Shown here piece by piece: positions 40,802 through 64,000 of a DNA stretch of 64,000 nucleotides. Source of the DNA: a virus. Its lineage: Duplodnaviria > Heunggongvirae > Uroviricota > Caudoviricetes. Under the pieces are notes generated by a model, which was given only the letters and a program-made list of their open reading frames with translations, searched no databases and was not told the origin of the DNA. The stretch lies in the IMG/VR virus record IMGVR_UViG_647533110_000001. One strand, 5' to 3'. A program made the translations under genes and the position numbers. The stretch's first letter is position 1, and each line of letters starts with the position of its first letter.

Positions 40802-40884
40802 CATTTAAGGTTAAAAAGATTGTTATTGGATTAGCTTATTTTTCTTTCCGCGAAGCTGTGAAGTTGTGAAACTTCCAGCTATCT

Positions 40885-40955: not shown

Positions 40956-41314
40956 CATAAAAATGGGGAGTTGAAATTACTCCCCAAAGATGACAACCAT
41001 AGGGCTAATATGGTTGTGAAATCAAAATGACAGCGGCTATTCGCAAAGTTGAATCAAAAGAGATATGACAGCTATAATTGTCTGAAGGACAACACAGATT
41101 GCAACTATATTGTCTCTTCGCTCTTGGCTAAAATGATTCGATTTACCCGTAGGTTTAGTTATATTGCTTGCAAAGGTAAGTGAAATTTGCGATAAACTGT
41201 CTTTTGACCGAAAAACTGTTAAGGGTTAAGTGGAAACCGGCCCCTGTGCAATTACTGGAAACTTCAGTACAAACACTCATCCGGTCATGGTGGTTACAGT
41301 TGCTCCACCATTAT

Positions 41315-41387
41315 AGTACATTAGTTCAGTGGTTAGAACGCTACATTGTCACTGTAGAGATCACGAGTTCGATTCTCGTATGCACTG
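41315..41387 (+). tRNA. tRNA-Asp(GTC)-like with one acceptor-stem mismatch
   Basis: D arm GTTCAGTGGTTAGAAC, anticodon arm CTACA-TTGTCAC-TGTAG, T arm ACGAG-TTCGATT-CTCGT. Confidence 0.5.
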
Positions 41388-45643: not shown

Positions 45644-47026
45644 TCATTTCATCAACTCAACAACATCTTCCGGCAACATCGCATTCCCTGCATCATCTTT
45701 CGGAGCATTCTTAAGGAGCAACATCGGAACAATGGTATAGTTCTTGGCAAACGGCAATAAATTAGCCTTGCGAAGAAGTTCAGTTGTTAACTGTTTACCA
45801 TTCTCTTGATTTGTCCATTTACATTCTCCAACCAGCAGATATTTTTTATCAAGAGATTCAGCCATTACATCAAATTCCACTTGTTCAGGCTTCTTATCCT
45901 CATTGAGAACAGAACCCCACCAGCGTTTTGCCTTACCGTAAACAATTCCATTGACCATATTTCCCGTTACAGCATCCCTGCATAGTTTTTCCCAATGCAT
46001 ACTCACATACTCCGAGAAATGGGCTGCCAATGCCTGTTCTAATGGTAAACGACGACCAAGCTCGATGAACGAACGGTTAGGCACGACAAACTGATAGTAG
46101 AATGCCATAAAAGGGTCTGCAATCTTATATAGGCTCTTTTTTGCATTCTTTTCGTCAATTCCGAACGGAACATCTTTCTCTAAAAATCCGAGGTCAATAA
46201 GTTTCTTCAATGGACGTGACAGATTAGTTGCAGGCTCATTACATCTGGCAGCAATCTCAGAAAGACGATTTGCACCGGATCCGATATAGGACATGATTGT
46301 AGAAGTCTTGACAATGTCCTTCACATCATCTTGAAACAGTTTTATCGGCTCCTCGTAAAGAGTGCCATTTACAGAAAGGATATTGTGCCACAACGCATCG
46401 GAAAGTGAACTTCTGTTTTCTCGCAGTTCCCAGTAACGAGGCACACCGCCCCATACAGCATACTCTTCAACGGCACCCACAGCGTCAAGGTTCAAAGCCT
46501 CCTGAATATACGGCAAGCGTATAGGCATAAGTCTCATAATCTCATCAGCACGGCCATAGAGAGGTGCCGTAGAATCAAGAAACAGTCCATACATCATATT
46601 TTGCGATGAACCACAAAGTACAAGATTATACTTCAACTGCTTTTCATCAACAAATTTCTGCAACACTGACGGCAGTTCCGGGGATTGTTCCACCAGATAC
46701 GGAAATTCATCCAGGCATAGCGTGAAACGCTTGTCTGTGCGATAATTGACCGCACGAAACAGAGACTCCCAATCCGGATAAGTCAACTTGTCAAAATCAG
46801 GAAATACTTGTGCTACTACCTTTGCAAGTAAAGTCCTTTGGTGCTGTCCTTCCGAACGGTCAGCAAGGAAATATACATCACTGTCCGACAACACCCTTTT
46901 GATAAGTGTTGACTTACCCAATCGCCTGCGACCGTACACTACGACCAACGAGGACTTCTCTCTTGAAAGAGCATCCCTCAGTCGTGCTGTTTCTTCTATT
47001 CTATCAACGAAGTTCATATTCAACAT
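45644..47026 (-). CDS. AAA+ ATPase (Arch_ATPase/DUF234-type ATP-binding protein)
   Basis: Walker A GRRRLGKSTL; Walker B LCLDEFPYL. Confidence 0.7.
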   Translation of the reverse strand: MLNMNFVDRIEETARLRDALSREKSSLVVVYGRRRLGKSTLIKRVLSDSDVYFLADRSEGQHQRTLLAKVVAQVFPDFDKLTYPDWESLFRAVNYRTDKRFTLCLDEFPYLVEQSPELPSVLQKFVDEKQLKYNLVLCGSSQNMMYGLFLDSTAPLYGRADEIMRLMPIRLPYIQEALNLDAVGAVEEYAVWGGVPRYWELRENRSSLSDALWHNILSVNGTLYEEPIKLFQDDVKDIVKTSTIMSYIGSGANRLSEIAARCNEPATNLSRPLKKLIDLGFLEKDVPFGIDEKNAKKSLYKIADPFMAFYYQFVVPNRSFIELGRRLPLEQALAAHFSEYVSMHWEKLCRDAVTGNMVNGIVYGKAKRWWGSVLNEDKKPEQVEFDVMAESLDKKYLLVGECKWTNQENGKQLTTELLRKANLLPFAKNYTIVPMLLLKNAPKDDAGNAMLPEDVVELMK

Positions 47027-47109: not shown

Positions 47110-48900
47110 AATGTAAGGTAAGCGTCTCCAGGATGCCGTATCAGCATAAGAAAAGCAGGGTCACTGGCCCTGCTTGTTCTTTTTCCAGCGGTCTGGAAGT
47201 ATATCTCTGTACGCTTCCAGTGTGGCGGACCTCTGCAAGACATCCGCTCTGTTAAGTATGTCTGTGAGGTACTCGAAGAAGTTTATCTTGTGCAGCCTGC
47301 ATGAACATGCGAGAGAGTAGAAGATGCAGCCACGCTCTGCTCCGGCATGGCTGCCGAAGAAAAGGGAATTCTTTCTGGACAAGGATATGTACCTGTTGAT
47401 TCTCTCAATGAGATTATTGTCCCACGAGTAGTCTCCACCAGTAGTTATAGCTTCGATACCATCCCATTCGTTGAGCATGTATTTGGCGGCCTTGAACATC
47501 TGCGACTTTGGAGGATATTTCCGAGGTTGAGACTTGATCTTGAGAAGCATCTCCTTCATCTGCCTGAGTATATGAGACGCATACTCCTGTCGCCACCTCA
47601 GATTATCTTTGACCGTCCAGCCGTCTTCTCCGATCTTATGCTTATGTTCATTCTGATAGAGCTGATTGGCTAGAGTCAGTATCTTGTCTGCATCAGCATT
47701 GCCTTTCATGTCCAGGAACTCTCTCTTGCAATGCTGAAGACAGGCTAGTCTTAATATCTTTCCTCCGGACTGTGCTGCGACTTTCTTGTAAGCTCCCAGG
47801 CCATCTGACTGTATCGCTCCGCTATATCCCTTGAGCTCTTTCAGTATTACCTCTTCGCTTCTTGAACCATCATCATAGAAGAAGTATGCCAGGCCGAGAT
47901 GTGCTGCTACAATCACCCAGACATAACCCTTGCGGCTTCCCTTGCCGTCATTCAGTTCCTTCTTTACGAGAACTCTGTGGTAGGTCTCATCGCAGCAGAG
48001 ATAGTTATCTTCTTTGACTGCCTTCTGCATCGCCTTGTATAAGTTTTCGAACAGAAGTGCTGTCTTCTTCAGCAGCCCGTGAGCGGTCTGTTTGTCGATA
48101 TTGAAGCCGTTCTCGTTAAAGTACGCCACGATACGTTCCACCGGCATTGAGTACAGATAACGGAGCTGGGCTATGCCTGAGATGAACGACCCGTCGAAGC
48201 TGGAGTTCTGAAGAGGTGCAAGAGGAGCCTTTGCGCTTACAAGCTTATCTCCATCCTTTACTGTGTGGATATAATACAAGTGTTTGATGAACCTTGGAGG
48301 TATCATCTCATAGCGGACAGTCTCTCTTGTACTGAGCGGCTTCCGTCCTTCCATGCCGTCAGGATACACGTCATGCTTGACTGTCTCCATCTCGAAATGC
48401 ATATTACGCTTTGCACCATTGTTACCGCGGGACTTGCGCTCAACTTCCTTCTGAGCAATCTCTTCTTCTGTCTTAGGAGTTACTGGAGTAGATGCTTGTT
48501 TCTCTGACTTCTTCTCAAGAAGCTTTGACATGCCACGAACTTGATTGTTGGCCTTGTCGAGACTCTTGTCGCGTTCTTTCAGGAGAGACTCCAGATTCGC
48601 TATAGTCTCGCGAAGCTCTGAGATGGTCACGACCATGGCATTCATGCTGGCAGACATGTTGTCAATAGTGAGTCTCAGCTGATCGTTTGTCGCATTCGAC
48701 GCCTTCAGCCGAGACTCCAAAAGTTTGATTATCATGTCCTTTCCCATACATCTAAGGTACGAAGAAAAACGAGATATGTAATAGTTTTTAAGATTTATTT
48801 TATTGGTAATATTCTTAACCATCTTAAAAATATACACTTAAATATTTTATAATCAATATATTATAAGAAAGGTAATTTTAATGGAGAAACAAATAAGGAA
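47110..48900 (-). mobile_element. IS66-family insertion sequence, single ORF; boundaries approximate
   Basis: terminal GTAAGCG motif at ~47116 as in IS66 inverted repeats; opposite inverted repeat not found; no tnpA/tnpB ORFs. Confidence 0.45.
47161..48747 (-). CDS. IS66-family transposase
   Basis: N-terminal coiled coil; DETYHRV, GYVWV, DGLGAY and CLQHCKREF (zinc/H..RRxF) motifs; C-terminal DNNLIERINRYISLSRKNSLFFGSHAGA..YSL; start chosen at MGKDMII. Confidence 0.8.
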   Translation of the reverse strand: MGKDMIIKLLESRLKASNATNDQLRLTIDNMSASMNAMVVTISELRETIANLESLLKERDKSLDKANNQVRGMSKLLEKKSEKQASTPVTPKTEEEIAQKEVERKSRGNNGAKRNMHFEMETVKHDVYPDGMEGRKPLSTRETVRYEMIPPRFIKHLYYIHTVKDGDKLVSAKAPLAPLQNSSFDGSFISGIAQLRYLYSMPVERIVAYFNENGFNIDKQTAHGLLKKTALLFENLYKAMQKAVKEDNYLCCDETYHRVLVKKELNDGKGSRKGYVWVIVAAHLGLAYFFYDDGSRSEEVILKELKGYSGAIQSDGLGAYKKVAAQSGGKILRLACLQHCKREFLDMKGNADADKILTLANQLYQNEHKHKIGEDGWTVKDNLRWRQEYASHILRQMKEMLLKIKSQPRKYPPKSQMFKAAKYMLNEWDGIEAITTGGDYSWDNNLIERINRYISLSRKNSLFFGSHAGAERGCIFYSLACSCRLHKINFFEYLTDILNRADVLQRSATLEAYRDILPDRWKKNKQGQ

Positions 48901-49597
48901 CAAAAATAGGAATTAAAGTGATTTCTCATTTTTCTATTTGCACTCTGTTTCTTTCTTTTCGTTTGTTTGCTTTCAGAGTGCATTCCGAGCAATTTTATCT
49001 GCTCTCATCATTCGAAGAATTTGCTCCTAACTTTAACTAACAAATTATTTGCAGCTCATAAAGAGAATACAAATTATTATCTCTTGAAGTTGTATTGCTT
49101 GTAGCAAAGATAATCTTTTTTGTACAGGCAGCCAAAAATGCCTGCCTATATTTAGTTTAATTTAGTTTAGCATATATAAGGCTAACAAACTAAACCAAAC
49201 TGGATTTTCATGTTACTTTTTGTGATTTTCCCATTCTACCCATACAGCCAAAAGAGAAGATAAGCTCTTGCCTCTTTTCTCTTTTCGCTGCGATACTCTT
49301 TTACTTCATAGCCACCTTTTACACACATCCGTACCGAGCAAACTCCCACATGCTCGCATATCAACTTTCGGTCTGCCCGATGGGAATTGTGTCGCAAAGG
49401 TATTTGCCATGTCTTTATTGTATGCAAGGTTGTAACCTGAAGGTTCACTACAAAATCTCCACGCTCCGCTTCGCAGAGGTAGTATTTTGTAGTGAAACCC
49501 TGCATACATAGCCATGCCACCTGTTGAAGCGACATAATTTCAATCAAGCCCGAAAGTAAGTGAAATGCTACAGGAGGGAAAGTAACAAACTTAAAAC

Positions 49598-49909
49598 TTG
49601 GTATTTATGGCAAATTATGCAACCAACATTTTCCACGCAAGAACGGAAAATAAAACAGACCTCGACAAAATAGAGGCTTTCTTGGATGACACTTTCAGCG
49701 AATTTACCAATCGATATGGTGATAGTGTAGATGCAGAATTTTCCTCTCGTTGGGTGTATCCAGAAGAAGAAATCAAAAAATTGGTAGAATCGTTGGAGGA
49801 CAAAGATAAAGTCTATATCAAGATTCTAACCTATGAATTTGAAGACGAGTACGTGAGCTTTAGAATATTCTCTCAGGGAGAATGGAAGGTCAAATTAATA
49901 ACTGAATGA
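49598..49909 (+). CDS. hypothetical protein
   Basis: 103-aa ORF. Confidence 0.4.
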   Translation: MVFMANYATNIFHARTENKTDLDKIEAFLDDTFSEFTNRYGDSVDAEFSSRWVYPEEEIKKLVESLEDKDKVYIKILTYEFEDEYVSFRIFSQGEWKVKLITE

Positions 49910-50435: not shown

Positions 50436-50789
50436 ATGAAAGTAACAATTGAACACAGCTTTTGCCCCTATTGTGACGAGGTAACTGAACTTTATTTCCG
50501 AATCATTAACACGATTCTTTTTTCTGGCAATGAGGCGGAATTGCGTGAAAGCATGAGACAGTTGGAGAAAAAAACTCCACTTGATGAATATTTCACATAC
50601 GGTTACGGTGCACGACACCTTTGGGTTTGCCAGCGACGTCCCAGCGACAAAACCAAAATATTCGAGCATGATTCCACCTCCCTTTATAGTTCACCTTCCT
50701 CCGATATAGTACGGGCAATCCGTTCCGGTTGTCCGTTACCCTGTTTTAACACCCCTGTTTTACAGTTTTATTCATCCCTTTCTATTTGA
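50436..50789 (+). CDS. hypothetical protein; C-terminus runs into direct repeat copy 1
   Basis: N-terminal CPYCDE zinc-ribbon-like. Confidence 0.4.
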   Translation: MKVTIEHSFCPYCDEVTELYFRIINTILFSGNEAELRESMRQLEKKTPLDEYFTYGYGARHLWVCQRRPSDKTKIFEHDSTSLYSSPSSDIVRAIRSGCPLPCFNTPVLQFYSSLSI

Positions 50790-51030
50790 TTGTCATTTAT
50801 TATCGTTTCGCTGCTGCCGTGCGACCTCTCGTGGACTTATTTTCCCGCAAAGGTAATAGGCTGCTCCAATCTTGCCAATGCCGGCGTTCCGCCGCGAGTG
50901 AGCCGCAAAAATCTTCCTCTCCGTCTGTCGAGCGTATTTTCCCGCATCAGCCTTGTCAGATTGTTTCCGCCACCTTTTGGAGGCAGAAAAATAAATCCCA
51001 AAGGTCGCAAACAGGTTGAACAAAGGGAAA
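50670..51030. repeat. direct repeat copy 1 (~360 bp), about 97% identical to 53588..53955
   Basis: aligned by eye; identical except for a handful of substitutions and one 1-nt indel. Confidence 0.9.
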
Positions 51031-51058
51031 TAGTAACAATAAAAACAAAAATAACATT

Positions 51059-51280
51059 ATGAAAACAGAGATTAGGCAGAATGGCAAAGTGATACTATCG
51101 AGTACAGACGATATATCCATTCCGATGATTTTCAAAAACTTATGTGGTAAGAACTTTTCTGGAAACGACTATCAAAACTATCTCAGAACAGTTTGTCAGG
51201 ATATTGGTGTTACGACGGGGGCGATTGAGTATTATGCCGACAACGTTTTGATTGAGAAAGCAACTATTCCTGAATTTTAA
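51059..51280 (+). CDS. hypothetical protein
   Basis: 73-aa ORF, first gene after repeat copy 1. Confidence 0.4.
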   Translation: MKTEIRQNGKVILSSTDDISIPMIFKNLCGKNFSGNDYQNYLRTVCQDIGVTTGAIEYYADNVLIEKATIPEF

Positions 51281-51292
51281 AAACTATATACA

Positions 51293-51865
51293 ATGAAAAG
51301 GAAAGAGAAAGCAGCAGTAGATGAATTTGTTGCCCTTGTAGGAGGCAAGACATGGGAGCCTGTACGCCATAAATGTATGGGTAAATGGAGTGGTATGACC
51401 GATTACGGTTTTGTCATAGACGGACGGATAACGCTCTTTGTTTCCAATAGTATGGCATACTTTAAGAAACGGATTCGTGAGTGGATTAAGTCGATACATA
51501 CTTTTGAAGCGAAGAAAGATTGCTACCTTCGCTTGCTACGTGAACAAATTGAAAAGGACAACGACAAGGCAAAGGACGAAAAGTTAAATCCTGTCAGACT
51601 GATAGACATTGGCATCTTATCCCCCGAAAGCAATAGCCCGTTTGATTTTTTTACCCCTTATGTGTTAGTCGAAATAAACGGCAGGCGGTTCAAGCATCAA
51701 ACAGCGGAGTTAAGTTGCGCTATTATGGTGGATAGTTTGGCAGGATACCTTGAAGAATGCAACTGCAAGGATATATACACGGCAAGGGCAGTGCGTACAC
51801 CTGACTACATTTTTTGCGGTGTGCGGTTTGACTCCCGTGATAATATGTATAAGATTGGAAAGTAG
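51293..51865 (+). CDS. hypothetical protein
   Basis: 190-aa ORF. Confidence 0.5.
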   Translation: MKRKEKAAVDEFVALVGGKTWEPVRHKCMGKWSGMTDYGFVIDGRITLFVSNSMAYFKKRIREWIKSIHTFEAKKDCYLRLLREQIEKDNDKAKDEKLNPVRLIDIGILSPESNSPFDFFTPYVLVEINGRRFKHQTAELSCAIMVDSLAGYLEECNCKDIYTARAVRTPDYIFCGVRFDSRDNMYKIGK

Positions 51866-52004
51866 AGATTAATGATGTCTGAAGAAGTTATCACTTACAA
51901 CGATAACTCCAGTCGTTTTAAAGGACGGCATCAGCATTTGACCTACTAAATACATAAGTTCCCAATTTACGATTGGAGACTTATGTATTTTTCTGTATGG
52001 AAAA

Positions 52005-52358
52005 CTAATCAAATAATCGCTGACTTATCATCCAGTCATTAAGCACGTCCGGATCTACACGATTTGTAAGATTCACATTTTTACTCAAACAACCGATTTT
52101 CTCACCTCTTAAATAAATAACTGGTGGGGTTAATGTATTCGGATTGTATGGACTTAACGATGAACTGGGACTTCCATATATGGAATACCGATTCTTGAAA
52201 GATATACTTGAAAAGTGACTACCGTATATATTCTCGTTGTTGGATATGGAATCAGGAGTAGATGTGTTCAACGACAATCTGCCTAAATACAAACCGTCAT
52301 TTGCCAATAGAAACGATTCTTTCCTTGAAATTCTGGTATCTAAACCTATTCTATCCAT
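52005..52358 (-). CDS. hypothetical protein
   Basis: 117-aa ORF. Confidence 0.4.
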   Translation of the reverse strand: MDRIGLDTRISRKESFLLANDGLYLGRLSLNTSTPDSISNNENIYGSHFSSISFKNRYSIYGSPSSSLSPYNPNTLTPPVIYLRGEKIGCLSKNVNLTNRVDPDVLNDWMISQRLFD

Positions 52359-52377
52359 GCCCTATGATTTAACGCCA

Positions 52378-52863
52378 TTATTTAATAATGCCATAACGTC
52401 TTTTAGTTGCATTATCGAACACCTCTGTCTCTCTTAGAAACTGCATTACCCGTTCCCTGTCTTCGGAAATCAGGCAACCTTTCAGTTTACCGTTCTTTTC
52501 CGTGATTTTTAATTTTGAAAGTTCGAATATATCGGAACAATCCAGCCAACTGTCATAGTCCAGAATATCACGATAGTTCCGAACCATCAAAGGATATTGG
52601 CAGTCCAGTAGCTCTTCCGACCTCTTGGAAGAATCTATTTCCGAATTTATCAGTAAGGCACCGATAGCGACACCTTCCGGAGTAAAGCCGATAATAACAA
52701 TATATTTATTGCGGTCTTTATATCCGTCTTTTAGTATCAGTCCGTCCTCTTCGTCCAAGGGGACATAAATAATGTCACCAATTTTGACTGATGACATATC
52801 TACTTGCTCAGCTTTGGCCATTATAGCTTTCAGCCTTTCCAATGCACCGGTTTTGTCGTCCAT
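52378..52863 (-). CDS. candidate toxin partner of Panacea-domain protein
   Basis: 161 aa, starts 6 bp after the Panacea gene stop on the same strand. Confidence 0.45.
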   Translation of the reverse strand: MDDKTGALERLKAIMAKAEQVDMSSVKIGDIIYVPLDEEDGLILKDGYKDRNKYIVIIGFTPEGVAIGALLINSEIDSSKRSEELLDCQYPLMVRNYRDILDYDSWLDCSDIFELSKLKITEKNGKLKGCLISEDRERVMQFLRETEVFDNATKRRYGIIK

Positions 52864-52868
52864 TTGAT

Positions 52869-53459
52869 TTAAGATAAAGCGTTCTTGACAATCTGCTTTT
52901 CTCGGATATAATCTACCATGTCCTCGGTAGCTTTTCCTGCCCGGGCTATATCTATAATGGTAATGAAGTTCTTTTGAGGATCATCCTGAATGCGTGTCAT
53001 CGCCTCTTCCCATGCCGAGTCATGCGACAAATCGGACAAGTCATAAGGGTCTGTATCCTTATATTTAGCGATAGCAGCGTCAAGACAACGTTTGTTGGCA
53101 CCTGATATATAGTCCATATCGGGTACGGCAGAAGTATATACCTTCTTGTCACGAACCTCTATGTCTGAAAGGAACTCGTCAAAATTCCCGTCCAAGGGTT
53201 TGCCTTCTGCAATTTGCAGTGCCTTGTAGGTATAGGCTGGCACCGGGCCATGCTTCAATGCTCTGAAAGAGTCTTCGACAATCACTTTGCCATATTTGAC
53301 AAGATGGTCCTGTTGGGCAAAATAAAGTATTTTAAATAACTTTATATAGTCCACTCCTTGAGTGAAACTCTGCATGATGTAGAGTACCACTGCTCTTATT
53401 TTAGCAATCTGTATAGCTGTTTTCATTTCAAAAAAATCTATGCGATTACAAAGATACAA
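52869..53459 (-). CDS. Panacea-domain (DUF4065) protein, putative antitoxin
   Basis: KLFKILYFAQQDHLVKYGKVIVEDSFRALKHGPVPAYTY matches the Panacea core KLxKLLYFA...AW.YGPV. Confidence 0.55.
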   Translation of the reverse strand: MYLCNRIDFFEMKTAIQIAKIRAVVLYIMQSFTQGVDYIKLFKILYFAQQDHLVKYGKVIVEDSFRALKHGPVPAYTYKALQIAEGKPLDGNFDEFLSDIEVRDKKVYTSAVPDMDYISGANKRCLDAAIAKYKDTDPYDLSDLSHDSAWEEAMTRIQDDPQKNFITIIDIARAGKATEDMVDYIREKQIVKNALS

Positions 53460-53587
53460 CTAATTTGCTGAATAATACGCTCATGATACAAAAAAAATAG
53501 TCCGTTGCATTTTTTTACGACATTTAATATAGTCGTCATTCTGAGAGTAATAGTCTGCAATTATCAAGAGATGGGCCAATCCACCCG

Positions 53588-53955
53588 ATTCCACCTCCCT
53601 TTATAGTTCACCTTCCTCCGATTATAGTACGGGCAATCCGTTCCGATTGTCCATTACCCTGTTTTAACACCCCTGTTTTACAGTTTTATTCATCCCTTTC
53701 TATTTGATTGTCATTTATTATCGTTTTGCTGCTGCCGTGCGACCTCTCGTGGACTTATTTTCCCGCAAAGGTAATAGGCTGCTCCAATCTTGCCAATGCC
53801 GGCGTTCCGCTGCGAGTGAGCCGTAAAAATCTTCCTCTCCGTCTGTCGAGCGTATTTTTCCGCATCAGCCTTGTCAGATTGTTTCCGCCACCTTTTGGAG
53901 GCAGAAAAATAAATCCCAAAGGTCGCAAACAGGCCGAAAAAAGGGAAAAAAAGAA
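53588..53955. repeat. direct repeat copy 2 (~360 bp), leader of the methylase-helicase gene
   Basis: same sequence as 50670..51030; ends just before ATG 53966. Confidence 0.9.
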
Positions 53956-53965: not shown

Positions 53966-56900
53966 ATGAGTTACAACAAATTGAAATCATTGGTAGCGAA
54001 CGTGGAAGCCATAGAAACGGCAATGAAAATCCAAGTTCAAGGCAGGCAGGCCACTGCGGAAGAAAAAGAAATTTTATCCCGATATTCTGGTTTCGGGGGT
54101 ATCAAAGAAGTGTTGAATATAGGTACGGACAAGCCCATAGGTGGTGATATGCAAGAACCGATACAAAGATTGCAGGAGTTAATCAATGCTTACCCTCATT
54201 TCACAGAACCCATGCGACACAATGTCATAGAGGGTATCAAAGCATCTGTACTGACAGCATTTTACACTCCTAAATTCCTTGTTGATGCAGTGGTGCGGCA
54301 GATACACGCCACGTTCAGCGAAAACGGCCTCAAAATGCGTTCATTTCTCGAACCGAGTGCAGGTATAGGCGGTTTTCTGCCCATAGCCATGTCCGGCACG
54401 TATGGCTATGCCATTGAGAAAGATCTCATTTCGGGGATGATACTTTCCCTGCTCCATGAGAACACGCTAACACGGACGGCTGCATTTGAAACCATTGGAG
54501 AACAAGGTTTTGAGCATACAACTTTCGATGTCATAGCCTCCAACATCCCGTTTGGCAATTTCCGGGTATTCGATGCGGAGCTGTGGAAGAAAGGCGGTAT
54601 GTACGAACAGGCCACCAAGACCATACACAACTACTTTTTTGTCAAAGCGATGGAGTTGTTGAATGAGGGTGGATTATTGGCTTTCATCACATCGAGGGGC
54701 ATAGCCGACACGCCCGGTAACAAGTTCGTGCGTGAATATCTTGTAAATCATGCAGACCTGATAAGTGCAATCCGTCTGCCCGATATGCTTTTCATGCAGA
54801 CAAGCGGTATAGAGGTAGGCAGTGACCTGCTGATATTCCAAAAGCACACGCACAAGACGGTACTCTCACAACGGGAACAACTGTTTTTACAAGTAGGCAG
54901 GGAAAAGGCGGACGCCATAGGCACAATGACCGAATACGCCAACAAATTGTTTACCATGCCGAAAACTACCCTTGCAACAGGTAGCCGCATTGTACAGAAC
55001 CAATACGGAAAATATGTGCGCAAATACCAATGGCAGGGAAATGAAAATGCCATGTCGCAATATCTCGCCGCACTGCTGAAACTCGACTTTGGCCGATATT
55101 TCCGCAAAAGTCTTTTCACTGGGAACGGACAGGGCAGCGAACATATGCAAATGTCCCTTTTCGGGAATGTAGCGATGAAACAAGTAGAAAAAGGTAAACG
55201 AGCCTACACGGATGGGGTGGAAGCATGGATGAAAGACGGCGCAATGGTACTGTTTGAGGGCCAGGTGGGTACTATCCAATATCGAAAATCAAGTCTTTAT
55301 CAAGAGGTAGCCATTGATTTTGTGCCGGTGGACGAGGGTAAGGTCAATACAGATAGGGCGAAAGACTATTTTCCTATACGCAAAGCATACTTTGAACTGT
55401 CAATCAAAGAAAGGGAAGAACAAAAAGAGGATAACGGGTTGCGTAGAGAGTTGAACGCCCGATACGATGCCTTTGTTGCCAAATGGGGCTGTTTCCACGA
55501 GAACGACAACAAGGAGTTTATCATGCTTGACAGCCTCGGTGTGGAAGTCTTTACAATAGAAATGCAGCTTGGAAAGGATTTAGTCAAGTCCGATATCATG
55601 CGTGAACCTGTGGCGTTCAAGAAGATAGACTCGAACAAAAGGCTGACACCGATTGAAGCGTTGGCAAGCAGCTTGAATTTCTACGGCAGGGTTGATATGG
55701 ACTACCTGATGCAGTCCACGGACAGCACCGAGGAAGAAATCATCGGCGACCTCAAAGGTGAGATATTTTACAATCCTGCTATTGGGGAGTGGGAGCACAA
55801 AGGCAAGTTCCTTTCAGGCAATGTCATAACCAAATGCAAGGAGATAGGTTCTTACTTGTCCGAACTCACGGACAGGGAAAAAGATTGGACGGAAACTGCT
55901 GTAAGGGCTTTGGTGGATGCGACACCCGAAGCGATACCCTACGAGGAACTCGACATTAACATGGGTGAGCGTTGGATTGACACAAAGTTATACGCCGATT
56001 TTGCAACTGAACTTTTCAAGGTAGAGACAAGTGTAATGTATTTCGATGTGAACGACACCTACATGGTACGTCTGCAAAGTTACTCTCCGGTGGCTTACAA
56101 CACCTATTTCGTCCGCAACTATAATGGTGAGGATTTGTTTGTTCATGCCCTGCATGATACTGTACCCGAAATTACGAAAAAGATATACCGCAATGGTGAT
56201 AAGGTGCGTGTGCCGGACGAGGAAGCCATACAAGAGGCAGCCACCAAGATACAGGAGATTAGAGACCGTTTCAACTGCTGGCTTGACAGGCAGCCGATAG
56301 AGGTTCGGGACGAGCTGGTAAGGGTATATAACGAGCGTTTCAACTGCTATGTTAGGCCGCACTATGACGGTTCGGCACAAACCTTTCCGCAGCTCTCTTT
56401 TGAGCAATTTCCATACGATAGCCTCTATCCCTCACAGAAAGATGCTATCTGGATGATTAAGCAGAACGGAGGCGGTATCTGTTGGCATGAGGTAGGCACA
56501 GGCAAGACGATGATAATGTGTGTTGCCGCTTACGAAATGAAACGTCTCGGACTGGCACACAAGCCGCTTATTATCGGGCTGAAAGCCAATGTACACGAAA
56601 TCGCCGATACGTTCCGTAAGGCATACCCTACGGCCAAAGTTCTCTATCCGGGCAAGGACGATTTTACCGCTGCCAACAGGCAAGAGGTCTTTTTAAAAAT
56701 CAAGAACAACAACTGGGACTGCATCATACTCACGCACGACCAGTTCGCCAAGATACCGCAGTCAGAAGAGACCATGATAGATATATTCACGGAAGAGCTT
56801 GCCGATGTGGAACGTAACCTTGAATTTTTGGAGCAGTCCACTATGCGTTACCGTAGCGGAAAGATGCAGGAGGGGTTAGAAAAGCGCAAACAGAACCTTG

Positions 56901-57082
56901 GGGCTAAATTACAAGAACTGCGTATGAAAATCAATAATCGGAAAGACGATGCTGTGGACTTCCACACAATGGGAATAGACCATATTTTTGTAGATGAATC
57001 GCATTATCAGAACTTTTTTGAAAATTCGGCTTTTGTTGGTAAGATGTTAGTGTATAATATGTTACAATATTATATTTTCTGA
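53966..57082 (+). pseudogene. N6-DNA methylase/SNF2-helicase fusion gene, 5' part, interrupted by an insertion at ~57010
   Basis: MTase motif VIASNIPFGNF, helicase Walker A HEVGTGKTM and DESH; frame leaves homology right after DESH and stops; continuation resumes at 62994. Confidence 0.7.
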
Positions 57083-57418
57083 TTAATATCTATAGTAGGT
57101 TTGCAGAAGAAATTTAATTTGTTATTTTGGAAAGTACAGAGATTTACAATTCTATTATAAAATGGGGCTTTAATGCTTATCTATTGAATCATAAAAGCAT
57201 TTCCTCTAAAAGACAAAGGTAAGATAAATGCAATATCAAATTCAATAATCCCAACTTATGCTTGCATATTCCAAAGCATAAAACATACACTATGCTGATA
57301 GAAGGAATAAATAGTTCTTTCCACCAACTATTAATAGCAATCATCAATAAGACCTTAGGTTAAGAAAACAACTTAACAAAAAAACGAAATCAGCAATATT
57401 ATCTCAATCTATTTGTTT

Positions 57419-57979
57419 TTAGTGAACGATTAGATCTTTTGGAACAATTGCATCAATTTCATCTTCTTCTGTTGTTGATTCCTTGTTTGTTCTCAACGCT
57501 TTCTCAGCTCGTTTTACAGCAGCAGGAAAAGTATGAGGTGCTTTAATATACAGCAAATCTTCTTCCTCTCGTAATTCATTTCTTTTATCTACAATTTCAT
57601 TATCATTCAACAATCCGGCTAAAATATCTGTCATTAGAGATTCGTACTTATTCCTTAGGTCATGTAATTTTGCTGCAAAATTTTTGTTTAATTTAGCCTT
57701 TTCTTCAAGTTGTCCATCTTTATAGCGCACTGTAAAATAAGACAAAAGTATTGCTAAGAAAGCTGTAATTGATCCTGATATTTGAGGCTCGATAAAAGAT
57801 AATATGGAACTCAAAGCACCACCTGTCGTAAGGACAGACAACCAGCATGTAATATTTTTCACGCATCGATCTTTTTCAAGATATATATCCCCTTGAATCT
57901 CTTGAATTTTGTGTGACCACGTTACTTTAACATAACGTCCTTCTATACATTTATATAACAAACGAGTTGATTCATTCAT
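57419..57979 (-). CDS. 2-TM protein, candidate SLATT-like effector
   Basis: two adjacent TM helices (ITCWLSVLTTGGALSSIL / ITAFLAILLSYFTV) then charged helical tail; overlaps upstream gene stop. Confidence 0.45.
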   Translation of the reverse strand: MNESTRLLYKCIEGRYVKVTWSHKIQEIQGDIYLEKDRCVKNITCWLSVLTTGGALSSILSFIEPQISGSITAFLAILLSYFTVRYKDGQLEEKAKLNKNFAAKLHDLRNKYESLMTDILAGLLNDNEIVDKRNELREEEDLLYIKAPHTFPAAVKRAEKALRTNKESTTEEDEIDAIVPKDLIVH

Positions 57980-58571
57980 GATTTAATAATCTTTTTATTA
58001 GCATTCGTCTTAGTGGCTCAGACTTCAGATAGTTTCGGAGCTTAGACTTTGCAATTCCTATACCCAACTTTGACTTATACATTTTTCTGATACTTTCTAT
58101 GTCACCAATCTCAATGTAATATTCTATTCTTGCATCATCACCATGCCGTTCGGCAGGCCATGGTGCTTCATTATACCTCTCATAGTAGGCTACCCAATAG
58201 AAGAAAGAACTGAGATTTGAGACAAAACTTTGTAACTGAAATCCATGTGGATAATACTCTGAAAATTTTTCAGGTAGCCCCAGACACAAAGTTCCATCTA
58301 CATTGATATGCAAATCCCCATGAAAAATTTGTTTCCTTTGGGCAATCTTCTTTATCTTGTTATCAGGATTATAAACTATAGGATACTCATTCCTGTTTTT
58401 CATTCGCCACAGTCGTACCTCTATTTCAAAAGTTGCCTTAATAATAGGTTTACTTTCATAACGATGATTAATAAAGAAAGGTCCATGTATTATGGACTTT
58501 TCTTTATCATATGTGAGCATTGGATAATTATCCCTTAGCCAATTCTGTTCTTCTTCGTTGAGCCGAACCAT
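57972..58571 (-). CDS. hypothetical protein in NTase operon
   Basis: 199 aa, overlaps both neighbours. Confidence 0.45.
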   Translation of the reverse strand: MVRLNEEEQNWLRDNYPMLTYDKEKSIIHGPFFINHRYESKPIIKATFEIEVRLWRMKNRNEYPIVYNPDNKIKKIAQRKQIFHGDLHINVDGTLCLGLPEKFSEYYPHGFQLQSFVSNLSSFFYWVAYYERYNEAPWPAERHGDDARIEYYIEIGDIESIRKMYKSKLGIGIAKSKLRNYLKSEPLRRMLIKRLLNHE

Positions 58572-59476
58572 GGACGACTTGGATTTTGTTGAATATATAC
58601 TCCTTGATTTTCTCGTTTTGAATTCTCTTTCGTTTTAGGGAACTCTTCTCCAAAAATTTTAATCCATTCTTCTGATGCCTCCATAGGCTTATCGTTATCA
58701 TTGTATTCTAAAGCCTTTTGGGCACGATTAAATGCTTTGTCAATATAAGATTTAATACAATCATTACATCTTGAACGCATATAATCAAAAAAGTCGAATA
58801 CAATTTTATCGTATCCTATATTATTTGCTCCAGACGCATAGTTGGCATCCAAAAATGCTATTATATCATCCATCCTCTCACAAGATTTATAACTCATTGA
58901 AGGAGTATTGTGCGCCCACGCTTTAAGCATCTTGGCTAAATCACGCGTAAGACCAGAAGTTGCTTTATTGGATTCGTTAAACTTGTCTATTTCCATTCTA
59001 GGATCAAAATAATCCCACGAGCCACCATTCTCTGAGTTAGGAATAAGAAATGTCCCATCTTCTTTTTCCAAAGCAGGAAGAAGCTCTACATTATGATGGT
59101 TTTCTGCGAATTGCACGAGAACTACTTTACCCCAAGCTTTGATTTTGTCCGTAGTGGTATATTTCTCTTTTAACACGTCTTTTATTTCTTGAAGCAAAGC
59201 GCATTGTCCGTTACTCTTATAGCCATCATATTTTTTAAAAGTATCTTCAGGTATCTTGAATAGGACATCAATATCCTGTTCTTCTGTAAATGGCCGTACA
59301 TTTGTTTTGGTTTTATATGAACCAAATAGATACTTTTTACTACTATCATAAGCTCCTTCTCCATAGTAGAATTTGTAAAGCTTTTCACATACACCAGTAT
59401 ACTTTGTCTGTGCATCTTCTTGTTGACCAGATGTCAACGTGATGTTCGATAAAAAATCTTTGAATGAATTTTCCAT
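58535..59476 (-). CDS. SMODS/CD-NTase-like nucleotidyltransferase
   Basis: pol-beta NTase signature FGSYKTKTNVRPFTEEQDIDVLF (GS..x..DxD); 313 aa, the size of CBASS cyclases / SMODS. Confidence 0.55.
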   Translation of the reverse strand: MENSFKDFLSNITLTSGQQEDAQTKYTGVCEKLYKFYYGEGAYDSSKKYLFGSYKTKTNVRPFTEEQDIDVLFKIPEDTFKKYDGYKSNGQCALLQEIKDVLKEKYTTTDKIKAWGKVVLVQFAENHHNVELLPALEKEDGTFLIPNSENGGSWDYFDPRMEIDKFNESNKATSGLTRDLAKMLKAWAHNTPSMSYKSCERMDDIIAFLDANYASGANNIGYDKIVFDFFDYMRSRCNDCIKSYIDKAFNRAQKALEYNDNDKPMEASEEWIKIFGEEFPKTKENSKRENQGVYIQQNPSRPWFGSTKKNRIG

Positions 59477-59659
59477 TAAGAATCGTTTTTAATTTTATTA
59501 AAAAATAGCAAATTTCGTGCCAACACATTAACATATTTAGAATTTCAGACATAAGAAAGGACTCTTTGTCTGATTGGCACAATTTAGTTGGAATATCAGA
59601 CAAAGTGTCCTCATAGGTTAGGGAAATATGCCAACTAAGAATATTTAAAAGTATAAGAA

Positions 59660-60718
59660 TCAGTCGGCTGCCCCAATTAGAGGTAATCCAAGAAATTCTT
59701 CAAGTCCCCCTTTGTTAGCCATTTTCCATCTTTTTTGTAACTTCCTTTGATCTTCATTTTCGAGTGTCTCTAACGCTTTTGATTCCTGTTCGGTTGTTAT
59801 GTCCAAATATACCATTGTCGTTTGGATACATTCATGTCCGAGTAGATACGATATTTGTGCTATATTCATGCCATTTTCGAGCCAATGTGAGGCTTTGGCA
59901 TGTCGGAACTGATGGGCATGCAGATTCAAGGGTACTTCTTTACATATTTTTTTCGCTATTGCGGCATACCGCTTCAATAGTTTATTCACATTCTCGGCAG
60001 ACATTGGTACGTAAATCCCCCTGCTTTTGGAATAGAACAAAAGGGCATCCGGATTATTGGGATTCGGATGGCATTCCGCAAGGTATTGTTTTATGTACTG
60101 TACTGGTTTGGCCAAAAGTGGTATAGGACGCTTTTTTCTGCCTTTTCCGATAACGATAATTCGCGGTTTCGGACCATCTGTAAAAATATTGCCAATTTTC
60201 AAAGAAAGGAGTTCGTTAATACGGACTGCCGTAGAATACAAGGTCAGCATTAGGGTATAGTCTCTGAGACCGCGAATCGTCCTCTGGTTGGGAACTGTGA
60301 AAAGGGCATTCACGGCCATCTTGCTAAGCCCCACGACTTTTCTCTTGGGTGTTTTCTGATTAGGCACTGTCTCTGCCTGAAGATAGGAAGTCATAAACGC
60401 TATGTCTTTATCAGCCATATATTTTAGGAAGGCTCTTAGTGCCGACAGCCTTACATTACATGTTGCAGGGCTGCAAGACCTGTGTTCTTTTAACCATAGA
60501 ATCCATTCATTCATGTTTTCTAAAGAAAAGCACTGGGCACTCAATGTCTTCGGAGAGATCTGCTTGACACTCCTCAAAAACATCACATAAAGTGCCACTG
60601 AAGTTTCGTAGTTTCTTTTGGTATAAGGACTGCATGCCTTTATTGATGGCACGTGGTATTCAAGCCATTCATTCAGGTATTTTGCAATTAGCAATGCTTG
60701 TGGATTAATCTTTTTCAT
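59660..60718 (-). CDS. tyrosine recombinase (RIT trio, third)
   Basis: R (AVRINELLSL), HAHQFRH, LGHECIQTTMVY with catalytic Tyr. Confidence 0.8.
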   Translation of the reverse strand: MKKINPQALLIAKYLNEWLEYHVPSIKACSPYTKRNYETSVALYVMFLRSVKQISPKTLSAQCFSLENMNEWILWLKEHRSCSPATCNVRLSALRAFLKYMADKDIAFMTSYLQAETVPNQKTPKRKVVGLSKMAVNALFTVPNQRTIRGLRDYTLMLTLYSTAVRINELLSLKIGNIFTDGPKPRIIVIGKGRKKRPIPLLAKPVQYIKQYLAECHPNPNNPDALLFYSKSRGIYVPMSAENVNKLLKRYAAIAKKICKEVPLNLHAHQFRHAKASHWLENGMNIAQISYLLGHECIQTTMVYLDITTEQESKALETLENEDQRKLQKRWKMANKGGLEEFLGLPLIGAAD

Positions 60719-61712
60719 ATTGCGTATTGGGTATTAGAAATTCATACATTTCTGCATCAGCAGATTCTATAATATCGGAGATTCCCGGTGTCAAGGAGTA
60801 ATAGGCCATTGTACTTTCCACCTGCTTATGTCCCATGCTTTTGCTCAAGGCCAGTAACTTGTCATGAACTGTAAATCCCTGATGATTCCAACTATTGATA
60901 TTCTCGATAGCATAATTGTGTCTTAATTCATAGGGTATGGCTTTGGAACTATTGCAACTTTTCCATAAAACTCTAAAGTGGTATGTTACCCAGGCAGGAG
61001 AATGTGCCTTGTCATCCAGAGTAGGGAAAAAGTACTCACGATTTGGAAGTATATCTGATATTCTGTCATTGTAAATATGCATTAGCAAAAGCATCGTGTC
61101 ATGAAGTACGACAAAATGCTGGTCATATCCTTTTCCTGACTTTATTGACACGACTCCACTTTCAAGGTTTACATCATCGCGTTTAAGCCTTATGGCCTCA
61201 GTTGTCCTCATCCCTGAACTATACAGTAAGCGGAAAAAAACCGGAAGCGTTATCCTCTGTATTGTCGACAGGATACCTTTTCTTGGTTTTATATTGTCAC
61301 AGGCAGTGAAAAATCTAATCAGTTCTTCATGCGTGAAGGCGTGAGGTATATAAGTTTTTGGTGATGACTTCGGTACTGGCGGAAGAGTTATATGGGTCTT
61401 TCCTCGTTTTTTTAGGTATTTGAACAAGTCAAGCACGGGATAAATCCTGGATACACATGAGTTTGTGCTCTCGGTTTCCCGCTGTTTGCACCATCTATCT
61501 GCTATTTCTTGAGTCAGTTCCGTATGTCCGGGATATTCTCTGGCACAAAAATGATCGAATAATACCACGTTTTTCACATAACTGTAGCTTGTACGTCCTG
61601 ATATCTTACGGTATCTGATATATCCTTCGATGGAATTGGCAAGAAATGATTGTAACTTCATTGATAAAACACCTCCTTTCTCACTGGGTAATTTTCTATG
61701 CTTAGGGCACAT
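60705..61712 (-). CDS. tyrosine recombinase (RIT trio, second)
   Basis: MRTTEAIRLKRDDV, YELRHNYAI, MGHKQVESTMAYY; overlaps both flanking recombinase genes. Confidence 0.75.
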   Translation of the reverse strand: MCPKHRKLPSEKGGVLSMKLQSFLANSIEGYIRYRKISGRTSYSYVKNVVLFDHFCAREYPGHTELTQEIADRWCKQRETESTNSCVSRIYPVLDLFKYLKKRGKTHITLPPVPKSSPKTYIPHAFTHEELIRFFTACDNIKPRKGILSTIQRITLPVFFRLLYSSGMRTTEAIRLKRDDVNLESGVVSIKSGKGYDQHFVVLHDTMLLLMHIYNDRISDILPNREYFFPTLDDKAHSPAWVTYHFRVLWKSCNSSKAIPYELRHNYAIENINSWNHQGFTVHDKLLALSKSMGHKQVESTMAYYSLTPGISDIIESADAEMYEFLIPNTQYEKD

Positions 61713-62872
61713 TCTTTGAGGCTTTTAAACTCGGCATTAAGATAAGGATTAAGAGACTTTGGGGAGGCATGTCCCAGCGTGGAGCTTATTACAGGCTGTT
61801 GGACTCCGGCTCGAAGCAATGATGTTGCCACATGATGGCGGAAAAGGTGTAATCCCTTCCTTTCAGAGGCTTTGAGCCTTATACCAGCCTTATGCATGAT
61901 TTTTACACATATTGCATTAAGATTGGATGTATGGAGCTTTCTATATGGAGAATTCACAGTAAGGAATACGTATGGTTCATAGCACTTAGGGCGTTCCTCT
62001 ACCAGATAATCATAGATAGCATTGCCAACAACAGCTCTAAGCGGTAGTGTTAATGCCGTTCCTGTTTTCGATTGGGTAATAATAATCAGGTCTCCTTCCC
62101 AATCAAAATCTTTCATAGTCAATGCCGATATATCGCAGCTACGCAGTCCTGTGTACAATGCAATGGTCGCAATAGCTTTGTCCTGTAGAGATATGGTCTT
62201 ATCATGTTCCAACACATGCTTTATTGCCTCGATCTCAGCTTCAGTAAGGTACTGTATGTTCTTTCTACTATTCGGTATGGTGGGCAGGTATGACATTATA
62301 TGTTCTATAATGCCATCATTGTAGTAAGGGACACATTTTTTCAATCCATATTCCACACTATATTTAAATGAATGACTTCTTATCGGTATATCATTTGGGG
62401 AAAACACCATTTGAACGGCTTCCTCATCTATAGCATCCAAGGAGTTTATTCCATATTTCTGTAAAGTTAAAAAGAACGAACTCATGGCTACTTTAATGGT
62501 TGGAACCATTTTTGTGTCTTTTCCAATGAATTTACATGCTATGTCCACGACTTTCATAAACTCTTCACATAGCTGATGGTAGTTGGATGGCTTGTGATAG
62601 TGTTTGTGTCCATCAGGTAAAGAAGCTTCCTCATCATAACGCTGAATGATACGGAGCAAACGGCTTTTATTGGCAAAAGTATGTTTGTTGTGCCATAACT
62701 TCGCTAACGTATGCTCTATATCAGCATAATTTTGCCATTCGTAACACATGGAGTTGCTTACAATCCACTTGGTTAAGTGGTTGATGTACCATATATATTG
62801 GGAAGTGTAACCAACTTCCTTCATATAGGCAACAAGACCAATAACTTTTTCTTTTAAATGCAGTATATCCAT
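61658..62872 (-). CDS. tyrosine recombinase (RIT trio, first)
   Basis: LRSCDISALTMKDF, LHLFRHHVATSLL, LGHASPKSLNPY. Confidence 0.8.
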   Translation of the reverse strand: MDILHLKEKVIGLVAYMKEVGYTSQYIWYINHLTKWIVSNSMCYEWQNYADIEHTLAKLWHNKHTFANKSRLLRIIQRYDEEASLPDGHKHYHKPSNYHQLCEEFMKVVDIACKFIGKDTKMVPTIKVAMSSFFLTLQKYGINSLDAIDEEAVQMVFSPNDIPIRSHSFKYSVEYGLKKCVPYYNDGIIEHIMSYLPTIPNSRKNIQYLTEAEIEAIKHVLEHDKTISLQDKAIATIALYTGLRSCDISALTMKDFDWEGDLIIITQSKTGTALTLPLRAVVGNAIYDYLVEERPKCYEPYVFLTVNSPYRKLHTSNLNAICVKIMHKAGIRLKASERKGLHLFRHHVATSLLRAGVQQPVISSTLGHASPKSLNPYLNAEFKSLKECALSIENYPVRKEVFYQ

Positions 62873-62993
62873 AACACATTAATATTAGTGACACGGGTAA
62901 TATACAAAAATAATCAGAACTTATCATGATATTAATTTGCCGATTTTTAGTAACATCAAATACAAAAATGGTATAATAAAAAAGTTCTGATAA

Positions 62994-64000
62994 TGCGACA
63001 AATCCAAAATTCCGGATTTATCGCATATTTTCAAGAACTTAATGTTCCAGACACGCCATAATCGTGTGGCAGGTATCGGCAACACCAAAGGCTCTCAAAG
63101 GGCAATGAACCTCTTGTTCGCCATTCGTGACATCCAACTTCGTACAGGTCGTGACCTTGGGGCTACGTTTCTGTCGGGTACAGTGGTGGTAAATGCACTG
63201 ACCGAACTATATGTGATGTTCAAGTATTTGCGTCCGCAGGAGCTTCAACGGCAACGGATTAGCTGTTTCGATGCGTGGGCAGCCATATTCACAAAGAAAA
63301 CGGCAGATTATGAGTTGAACGTGACAGGCTCGGTGAAGCGCAAAGAGCGTTTTCGTACTTACATCAAAGTACCGGAACTGGCAATGTTCCTGCGTGAGAT
63401 TACGGATTACCGTACAGCCGACATGATAAATCTTGATGTGCCTGAGAAGAACGTGCGTTTCCTTTCTTATCCCCCGACAATTGAGCAGGAGGAAATGATA
63501 GGACGCTTGGTATCTTTTGCCGGTAGCGGCCAGTGGGAGGACTTGGGGCTTGACGTTCCGCAACCCGACAACCTCGACAAGGCTAAAATGTTGGTTGCGA
63601 CCAATGTAGCCCGAAAAATGGCTCTTGATATGCGCTTGTTGGGTTGCAAGTTCAAGGATGATGCCGATAACAAGGCTTCTATCTGTGCGAGGACAATCTA
63701 TGACTACTATATACGCTCGAATGACAATCGGGGTACACAGTTCGTGTTCAGCGACCTTGGTACATACAAACCGAACGAATGGAACATATATACCGACATC
63801 AAAGAAAAGTTGGTACGGCTCGGTATTCCTGCTGATGAAATACAGTTTATCCAATGCGCCACTACCGAGAGGACAAGAAAAAAGCTGTTTGAAGAAATGA
63901 ATAACGGCAAGGTGCGAGTTCTTTTTGGAAGTACGACCATGTTAGGCACAGGTGTGAACGCCCAACAAAGGGCTGTGGCGGTGCATCACCTTGAAATACC
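62994..64000 (+). pseudogene. methylase/SNF2-helicase gene, 3' continuation, runs off window
   Basis: open frame: ...SHIFKNLMFQTRHNRVAGIGNTKGS...FSDLGTY...VRVLFGSTTMLGTGVNAQQRAVAVHHLEIP (helicase C-terminal motifs). Confidence 0.65.

Follow-up and report, generated by a model that had tools for sequence, protein, structure and literature searches.

A conserved hairpin ahead of genes of Bacteroidales integrative conjugative elements is a candidate single-strand-DNA promoter

The DNA studied here is a stretch of 64,000 nucleotides (nt) from the viral record IMGVR_UViG_647533110_000001; it is referred to as the window, and positions are those of the window. Towards its right end two near-identical direct repeats, copies A and B, precede a small gene and a large methylase-helicase gene in a segment of a Bacteroidales integrative conjugative element (ICE). 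Each repeat carries a hairpin that belongs to a family of over 100 members in mobile elements of Bacteroidota. We consider it rather probable, from sequence comparison, that these elements are single-strand-DNA promoters on the transferred strand, analogous but not homologous to Frpo of the F plasmid. A conserved hairpin that is specific for one strand, a host-type promoter in productive placement, a position before establishment genes and the co-orientation of the copies together make a single-strand promoter the best explanation.

Two direct repeats belong to a family of hairpin elements

Alignment of positions 50670-51030 with 53587-53948 by blastn gave 97.2% identity over 362 nt with one 1-nt indel (E = 1e-175), in agreement with the first-pass annotation of the window, which had described direct repeats of about 360 bp and about 97% identity. 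A repeat scan resolved the pair into blocks of 98% (50705-51004 and 53623-53922) and 100% identity (50670-50705 and 53587-53622), and a search of the window with the repeat sequence as query revealed two near-identical copies only. The high-identity tract stops 28 nt 5' of the ATG at 51059 in copy A and 17 nt 5' of the ATG at 53966 in copy B. Because weaker, family-level homology, GAAnAAAGGGAAA, carries on up to both start codons, the repeats are the leaders of two genes, a 73-amino acid (aa) gene behind copy A and the methylase-helicase gene behind copy B, as the annotation had proposed. The five open reading frames (ORFs) that it had counted between the copies are also present. It had overlooked a third, diverged family member further left, hairpin C (Table 1). 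The ~140 nt before each hairpin (50670-50812 and 53587-53730) are C/T-rich and G-poor on the plus strand, and likewise in other members; this could be a Rho-loading or insulating tract that closes the upstream transcription unit.

Searches beyond the window showed that the element is widespread. A degenerate pattern from the conserved centre occurs at 120 or more loci in species-representative genomes, almost all of them Bacteroidota. Profile searches returned 118 members and a covariance model 108 full-length members in 100 loci, mostly from Bacteroidales, with one Pedobacter contig; among viral contigs, an exact pattern picked up 13 loci. Multiple diverged copies per locus are common (2-6, and 2-4 in many 8-kb loci). 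The ICE in the Bacteroides finegoldii record OY725888 contains at least nine copies in 40 kb, each in a gap of ~450 bp before a small gene. A distant blastn search of 72,556 plasmids (PLSDB) found six records, all from Bacteroidales, and none outside this order. Near-identical double copies occur in three Bacteroidales plasmid-database records, and a further element of the plasmid collection, one with type VI secretion genes, contains a single copy of 78% identity directly 5' of an SSB gene. With the covariance model filters off, no more copies were found in the 48 kb at the left of the window, and a minus-strand promoter-motif scan gave no regular pattern there.

This distribution bears on the idea that the repeats are a plain segmental duplication or recombination scar without function, that is, a cassette hotspot alone. 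The copies do bracket variable cargo at 97% identity, and one- and two-copy forms both occur among close relatives. However, the same element is found with conserved structure and motifs before unrelated genes at more than 100 loci in many genera, members before different genes being 65-83% identical to each other, which makes a mere scar very improbable indeed.

The hairpin is conserved and favours one strand

The conserved core of the element is an imperfect hairpin of ~205 nt. In the alignment of 105 distinct members that was fitted with the covariance model, standard pairs fill 85.9% of the cells, compared with 58.3% in column shuffles and 40-51% with slid partners. Compensatory changes on both sides are seen at 71 of the 74 pairs, all six pair types are represented at many of them, and the covariation score is 0.521 versus 0.145. 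Each of the 49 non-redundant members is far more stable than its dinucleotide shuffles. A symmetric alignment of the 5' arm with the reverse complement of the 3' arm gives ~63 Watson-Crick positions per member.

The two strands of the element are not equivalent. The strand antisense to the downstream gene is the more stable one in 41 of the 49 members, by a mean of 5.7 kcal/mol (p = 2e-8), and the difference between strands in shuffles is only 1.8 kcal/mol. After the shuffle control, the mean z is -4.35 for the antisense strand and -3.13 for the sense (plus) strand. The mismatches in the arm test, read on the antisense strand, comprise 183 G·T against 67 A·C (p = 1e-13), with the bias present in 42 of 48 sequences; the excess also holds against the 1.24:1 expected from composition (p = 7e-9). 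Such an asymmetry is not expected of a protein-binding palindrome or a double-strand cruciform.

A different reading places the structure in RNA, as a plus-strand 5' leader that acts as a stabiliser, processing site or antitermination signal and is transcribed from an upstream promoter or by read-through. The element does lie in the 5' leader of every downstream gene, Watson-Crick covariation fits either strand equally, and the plus strand still beats its shuffles with a mean z of -3.1. Gram-positive conjugative elements are reported to use leader-based antitermination for establishment genes (PMC6294495). Nevertheless, we regard a leader RNA as rather unlikely. The wobble bias of 183 to 67 favours the opposite strand, and the plus strand is the less stable in those 41 of 49 members, with z of only -0.8 in copy A and -0.2 in copy B. 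A motif search of the plus strand inside the repeat found no TAnnTTTG, so no plus-strand promoter consensus is present there, and a leader RNA leaves the minus-strand -33/-7 boxes described below unexplained. The elements match no family of Rfam 15: only tRNAs reach the gathering score in the window, and at E <= 10 there are only two chance-level matches in 50500-51150.

The basal-stem sequence GCGACC (51003-51030 and 53921-53948) can pair either with a distant GGTCGC, which gives the long hairpin, or with a near GGTC/GGCC by the start codon to form a small local one. Covariation across the family (alignment A4) is seen for this small hairpin too, which may be an alternative fold of the mRNA leader.

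Promoter boxes lie in the stem in a productive arrangement

The best-conserved columns in the 3' arm of the folding strand are a TTG followed, after 21 columns, by TACCTTTGC. Among the 105 sequences, the -33 columns read T98 T92 G79, and the -7 columns T85 A88 C76 C81 T94 T94 T85 G91 C81. Promoters of Bacteroides have a -33 TTTG box in addition to the -7 box. In sequence and spacing, TTG-N21-TACCTTTGC matches this -33/-7 consensus, the -7 part of which is TAnnTTTG (PMC4747536). Of the two boxes, the -7 box lies closer to the base and the -33 box closer to the apex, so the arm placement is productive, with transcription directed out through the base into the gene. In hairpin A, a 5-nt bulge of the template arm directly faces the TTT|G junction within the -7 box. 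Opposite the TTT of the -7 box the partner base switches between A and G and the T stays fixed, as expected if the non-template bases are read directly. The plus-sense transcripts would start near 50988 in copy A and 53906 in copy B, with predicted leaders of ~60-71 nt (~71 nt for copy A).

The same boxes could serve in double-stranded DNA, as a leftward promoter that makes RNA antisense to the upstream gene or drives the Panacea operon and the like; a related proposal is a minus-strand RNA element, where the hairpin would act in minus-strand RNA reading in from the next element. In double-stranded DNA the boxes do conform to the consensus, minus-strand RNA would account for the strand bias equally well as minus-strand DNA, and there are minus-strand genes on the left side of copy B here and of copy A in the related locus L001. 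We nevertheless hold these proposals to be unlikely. Transcription from the boxes would begin in the basal 3' arm and leave out nearly the whole hairpin, so that the 74 covarying pairs would go unexplained. On their left the elements have no conserved sequence, and in arrays plus-strand genes lie there; it is with the gene on their right that the elements are constantly associated. In addition, no T-run follows the hairpin on the minus strand. The boxes of copy B in particular are unlikely to be the promoter of the Panacea operon, since the Panacea gene has a -7 box of its own at 53456, which is closer.

Elements lie at gene starts and are co-oriented

Of 101 elements, 96 end between -31 and +75 nt from an ATG, mostly between -8 and +42 nt, and a conserved leader motif, AAAGGGAAA, extends to the ATG. 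The genes behind the elements encode SSB, ArdA, ArdC (ArdcN plus metallopeptidase), a 570-aa ParB_N protein, LPD11, DUF1281_C, a DnaN-like protein, the methylase-helicase and many small proteins without assignment. The copies are co-oriented in 26 of the 27 multi-copy loci. Over 60 kb of the OY725888 ICE, an element precedes 12 of 30 plus-strand genes and none of 26 minus-strand genes (p = 2e-4). The gene for the MobV relaxase of this ICE has the same orientation as the element-bearing genes, which fits the general rule that relaxase genes lie in the lagging region; the arrangement in F is alike.

In several loci (L136, which is OY725888 64-84 kb, and L005, L016 and L100), the elements form arrays in which almost every small gene has its own diverged copy, at a spacing of ~0.8-1.5 kb. 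The proteins encoded in the arrays include 104-aa MTFREFM..., 175-aa MKQIIWSS... and 188-aa phosphoribosyltransferase-like families, which are candidate establishment or anti-defence factors.

The position of the elements also bears on whether they are single-strand origins only, where the hairpin primes synthesis of the complementary strand through RNA polymerase or primase and has no part in expression. Such an origin would equally predict the hairpin, the strand bias and the promoter boxes, and Frpo itself has been described as a promoter for primer RNA. However, priming needs no copy 0-40 nt before nearly every small gene, and it needs neither up to 12 copies in 60 kb nor a leader motif that reaches the ATG. 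An origin without a role in expression is therefore improbable.

A model for expression from the transferred strand

In the single-strand promoter model that we favour, each repeat would be a promoter-plus-leader module of the ICE. Formation of the hairpin would require the antisense strand of the downstream gene to be single-stranded, a state expected of the transferred strand just inside the recipient. The folded 3' arm would provide the non-template strand of the promoter and the 5' arm the template. Host RNA polymerase, if it uses the folded strand as the boxes suggest, would start ~5 nt beyond the -7 box and leave through the base of the hairpin, so that sense mRNA of the next gene would be made before the complementary strand exists. 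The same transcript could prime synthesis of that strand. The outcome would be immediate, transient expression of establishment and anti-defence genes.

Several points weigh against this model. The pair counts given above come from an alignment fitted to the structure, and such a fit favours structure; tests independent of the fit, the shuffle folds and the arm-against-arm alignment, were therefore added. RNAalifold on a plain MAFFT alignment recovered only the apical 3 pairs family-wide and 22 pairs in a close subfamily, because indels misalign the arms, and the covariance model and the arm test were used instead. The excess of G·T could be partly mutational, for instance through cytosine deamination of a strand that is often single-stranded. 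Two of the four conceivable placements of the boxes would be productive in any case, so the geometry by itself says little, and one subfamily has GACCTTTGC and no clear -33 TTG. In a control with Frpo2 of F, the sole -35-like motif matched (TTGAC) was on the other arm and the published boxes were not located; F may have its boxes in the alternative productive geometry. We infer from the co-orientation with MobV, together with the rule on relaxase genes, that the strand that folds is the one transferred. Furthermore, the ICE in the window appears degraded: ~39 kb are gone, the methylase gene is interrupted and an IS66 gene lies at the edge, so that these particular copies may be unused now. The element in the window being possibly in decay, the functional interpretation rests on the family and not on this locus alone.

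A last point is that the boxes form an ordinary consensus promoter in double-stranded DNA, pointing away from the gene, and a double-strand function is therefore possible. The two contexts could be combined in a strandedness switch, where incoming single-stranded DNA would give sense early mRNA and double-stranded DNA would give antisense RNA into the upstream early gene, which shuts it off. The data are compatible with a switch, because the boxes fit the consensus in both contexts and the arrays put each element directly behind another early gene. We give it a small but appreciable chance.

Comparison with known single-strand promoters

Orientation-specific hairpins that are active only as single-stranded DNA are known from the sso sites (ssoA, ssoU and others) of rolling-circle plasmids, where RNA polymerase reads promoter-like boxes in the stem. 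In contrast to what we propose for the elements described here, the sso sites give only a short primer, drive no gene, occur once per plasmid and do not lie before coding sequences. The early promoters of phage N4 are active only when a DNA hairpin is extruded or the DNA is single-stranded, aided by SSB. Unlike the elements of the window, their hairpins are tiny (a stem of 5-7 bp) and are read by a virion-borne RNA polymerase rather than host holoenzyme, the enzyme proposed here.

A close parallel is with the Frpo/ssi elements of F, ColIb-P9 and pESBL (classes 1-3). These also are long imperfect hairpins with host-type boxes in the stem, one copy per leading operon, before ssb, antirestriction, methylase and ParB-like genes and co-oriented. 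The leading region of F carries genes for a methylase, an antirestriction protein, ssb, a ParB-like protein, psiB and hok, which are co-oriented with tra and transcribed towards oriT. In the F control, a 317-nt hairpin folds on the template strand at -119.1 kcal/mol and on the other at -111.6 kcal/mol, so that the direction of the strand bias is reproduced. Plasmid pESBL has six single-strand promoters of three unrelated sequence classes, one for each leading operon, and such promoters are probably tuned to the sigma factor of the host (PMC12672017).

There are also clear differences. No sequence similarity to Frpo/ssi was found in the distant blastn search of PLSDB, which includes F. The boxes here are -33 TTG and -7 TAnnTTTG, whereas those of Frpo/ssi are the sigma-70 boxes TTGACA and TATAAT. 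The hairpin is ~205 nt here and ~300 nt there, the hosts here are ICEs of another phylum, and the placement of the boxes, on the 3' arm here, may differ from that in Frpo.

F also provides a parallel for the pair of copies. Frpo1 and Frpo2 are 92% identical and lie ~5 kb apart with the flmAB toxin-antitoxin genes between them, and flmAB has been proposed to protect this segment of F from recombinational loss (PMC9849209). Likewise, copies A and B are near-identical direct repeats of a promoter element, a few kb apart, with a putative toxin-antitoxin pair between them. The pair itself is of another kind: flmAB is of the hok/sok type, whereas here a Panacea/SocA antitoxin and a 161-aa partner are encoded on the opposite strand, and this is not a type I system with an RNA antitoxin.

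The two copies and the segment between them

Copies A and B are 97% identical, compared with 65-83% among other family members, and are thus a recent, lineage-specific duplication or gene-conversion pair. Partial conversion tracts are visible in relatives. A more diverged relative (L110, 78% nucleotide identity in the methylase gene) contains a single element in front of the methylase gene, directly preceded by DUF7688 and a 210-aa gene; it lacks the Panacea pair, and no element stands before DUF7688.

The first-pass annotation had interpreted the repeats as the borders of a cassette at a hotspot for cargo exchange and had suggested that related sequences be aligned for its presence or absence. 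All plasmid-database and IMG/VR records that span the region have both copies with the same cargo, the pattern that the annotation had named as speaking against a hotspot; the metagenome contigs do not keep to this pattern. These are 80 human-gut short-read contigs (L139-L218) of 86-100% identity, 43 of which break in the repeat, within ~320 nt upstream of the methylase start codon, and 37 of which span it. Among the relatives of 97-100% identity that span it, both copies and the cassette are present in 20, and 9 share the left flank, lack the cassette and carry one hybrid copy, A-type on the left and B-type on the right. These one-copy forms are dispersed among at least five methylase haplotypes. 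They reflect either recurrent deletion between the copies or recurrent loop collapse by the short-read assembler, which would look alike. One further contig, L203, has the order PanA-repeat-DUF7688 and resembles a tandem amplification; it is either that or a circle junction, or else the assembler looped twice. A gapped junction pattern in IMG/VR gave no one-copy and one two-copy form, which is uninformative. The one-copy form was also considered as the ancestral state and rejected, as it is scattered among two-copy haplotypes and DUF7688 is retained ahead of the single element in diverged relatives.

The cargo between the copies is variable, and one- and two-copy forms occur among close relatives, which supports the cassette interpretation in part; the repeat itself is a conserved structured element and not a by-product of cassette insertion. 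A domain search found no recombinase between or beside the copies, and the hybrid one-copy forms fit homologous rather than site-specific recombination. Of the two genes that had been annotated as a Panacea-domain pair, only that at 52869-53459 has a Panacea/SocA domain; the two are indeed a gene pair, and the 161-aa neighbour has no recognisable toxin or other domain in Pfam or NCBIfam. Its adjacency and co-orientation make it a candidate toxin partner of the Panacea antitoxin. By analogy with F, it is more likely that the toxin-antitoxin pair stabilises the segment than that it marks mobility: the pair would penalise loss of the segment by recombination of A with B. Recombination between the copies, checked by the pair, is a plausible route of cargo turnover.

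Features of the segment and state of the element

The features of the segment are given in Table 1. Homologues of the 103-aa ORF behind hairpin C also sit behind family elements in L136 and L016, and the 190-aa ORF is kept beside DUF7688 in relatives. The region of the doubtful 117-aa ORF lacks ~200 bp in L001, where no coding sequence is annotated. The true start of the Panacea gene is likely an ATG ~33 nt inside the ORF.

Table 1. Positions of the hairpin elements and genes in the ICE-like segment. Folding energies and z scores are given for each strand.
Feature	Position	Strand	Basis
Hairpin C, diverged third member	49360-49562	-	covariance model R1, 39.4 bits, E = 1e-8, filters off; nhmmer family profile, E = 3.5e-15; minus strand -45.2 kcal/mol, z -8.1; plus strand -36.6 kcal/mol, z -5.3
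Hairpin C, -33 box TTGCAT	49427-49422	-	motif location
Hairpin C, -7 box TACCTTTG	49402-49395	-	motif location
103-aa ORF directly 3' of hairpin C	49598-49909	+	ORF list; no Pfam or NCBIfam match
Repeat copy A, high-identity tract	50670-51030	+	repeat scan, blastn
Hairpin A	50813-51017	-	covariance model, 226.5 bits; apex near 50905-50935; minus strand -40.2 kcal/mol, z -3.5; plus strand -26.6 kcal/mol, z -0.8
Hairpin A, -33-like box TTGGCA, 3' arm	50873-50878	-	motif location
Hairpin A, -7 box TACCTTTG, 3' arm	50848-50855	-	motif location
73-aa DUF7688 gene, first gene behind copy A	51059-51280	+	Pfam PF24737, E = 2.5e-31
190-aa ORF, second gene of the copy A unit	51293-51865	+	ORF list; no family match
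117-aa ORF, doubtful	52005-52358	-	ORF list; no family match
161-aa ORF, candidate toxin partner	52378-52863	-	adjoins the Panacea gene, same orientation
Panacea/SocA-domain antitoxin	52869-53459	-	Pfam PF13274, E = 9.4e-24; NCBIfam SocA_antitoxin, E = 5e-11, below the curated cut-off
Repeat copy B, high-identity tract	53587-53948	+	repeat scan, blastn
Hairpin B	53731-53935	-	covariance model, 228.6 bits; minus strand -37.2 kcal/mol, z -3.0; plus strand -24.7 kcal/mol, z -0.2
Hairpin B, -33 box TTGGCA	53796-53791	-	motif location
Hairpin B, -7 box TACCTTTG	53773-53766	-	motif location
N6-adenine methylase/SNF2-type helicase gene behind copy B	53966-57082	+	Pfam N6_Mtase, Eco57I, ResIII

The ICE-like segment starts at ~48801, adjoining an IS66-family transposase gene (47161-48837). 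As the same boundary recurs in L136 at 3724 and in L182 at 3365, ~48801 is probably the left end of the ICE. The left edge of copy A is a junction (50669/50670): on its left the sequence matches the left-end module of OY725888, and on its right it corresponds to a point ~39 kb further along. The ~39 kb of OY725888 that the window lacks contain the ssb gene array, the genes for the MobV relaxase and a primase, and others. An origin of this junction mediated by the repeat was rejected, since there is no meaningful homology and the repeat runs ~60 nt further left in relatives. The closest metagenome relative, L182 (99.5% identical), has another junction, in which window position 50621 is joined to L001 position 4978.

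The methylase-helicase gene is cut by an insertion of ~6.0 kb (57001-63014), and its frame resumes at 63015, as found by tblastn against a full-length relative. The insertion has 19-bp inverted repeats, GCATTATCAGAACTTTTTT at 57001-57019 and the complement at 62980-62998. Encoded within it are a SMODS nucleotidyltransferase, a 199-aa ORF and a SLATT_4 effector, as well as three consecutive tyrosine recombinases (59.7-62.9 kb), and the whole looks like a CBASS-like defence module on a recombinase-trio element. The tyrosine recombinases belong to this separate insertion and not to the repeats.

Positions 1-47000 are unrelated to the ICE segment and consist mostly of small plus-strand genes, with no members of the hairpin family. 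This part contains six tRNA genes (38583-41387), a reverse transcriptase (15426-16694), a C5 cytosine methylase (23360-24997), a DUF2400 protein and a phage ProQ-C-like protein. Between the tRNA region and the IS66 gene, the minus strand at 45644-47026 encodes a 460-aa ATPase_2/DUF234 protein with a helix-turn-helix, beside a 201-aa ORF.

Implications

Experimentally, single-strand promoters are known only from a few enterobacterial plasmids, and searches beyond these were based on sigma-70 boxes or resemblance to Frpo. In a literature search of incomplete coverage, we found no link between single-strand promoters and Bacteroides or Bacteroidota. If the model is correct, it would extend the principle to the dominant phylum of the gut and to integrative elements, with boxes of the Bacteroidota type. 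To our knowledge, the family also offers unusually strong comparative evidence for a structure selected in single-stranded DNA.

Bacteroidales ICEs spread between species inside a single human gut. A single-strand promoter would explain how these ICEs express SSB, anti-restriction proteins and methylases before the defences of the host act. The covariance model would then help to recognise early or leading regions in mobile elements of Bacteroidota, and the small genes behind each copy would become candidate anti-defence genes.

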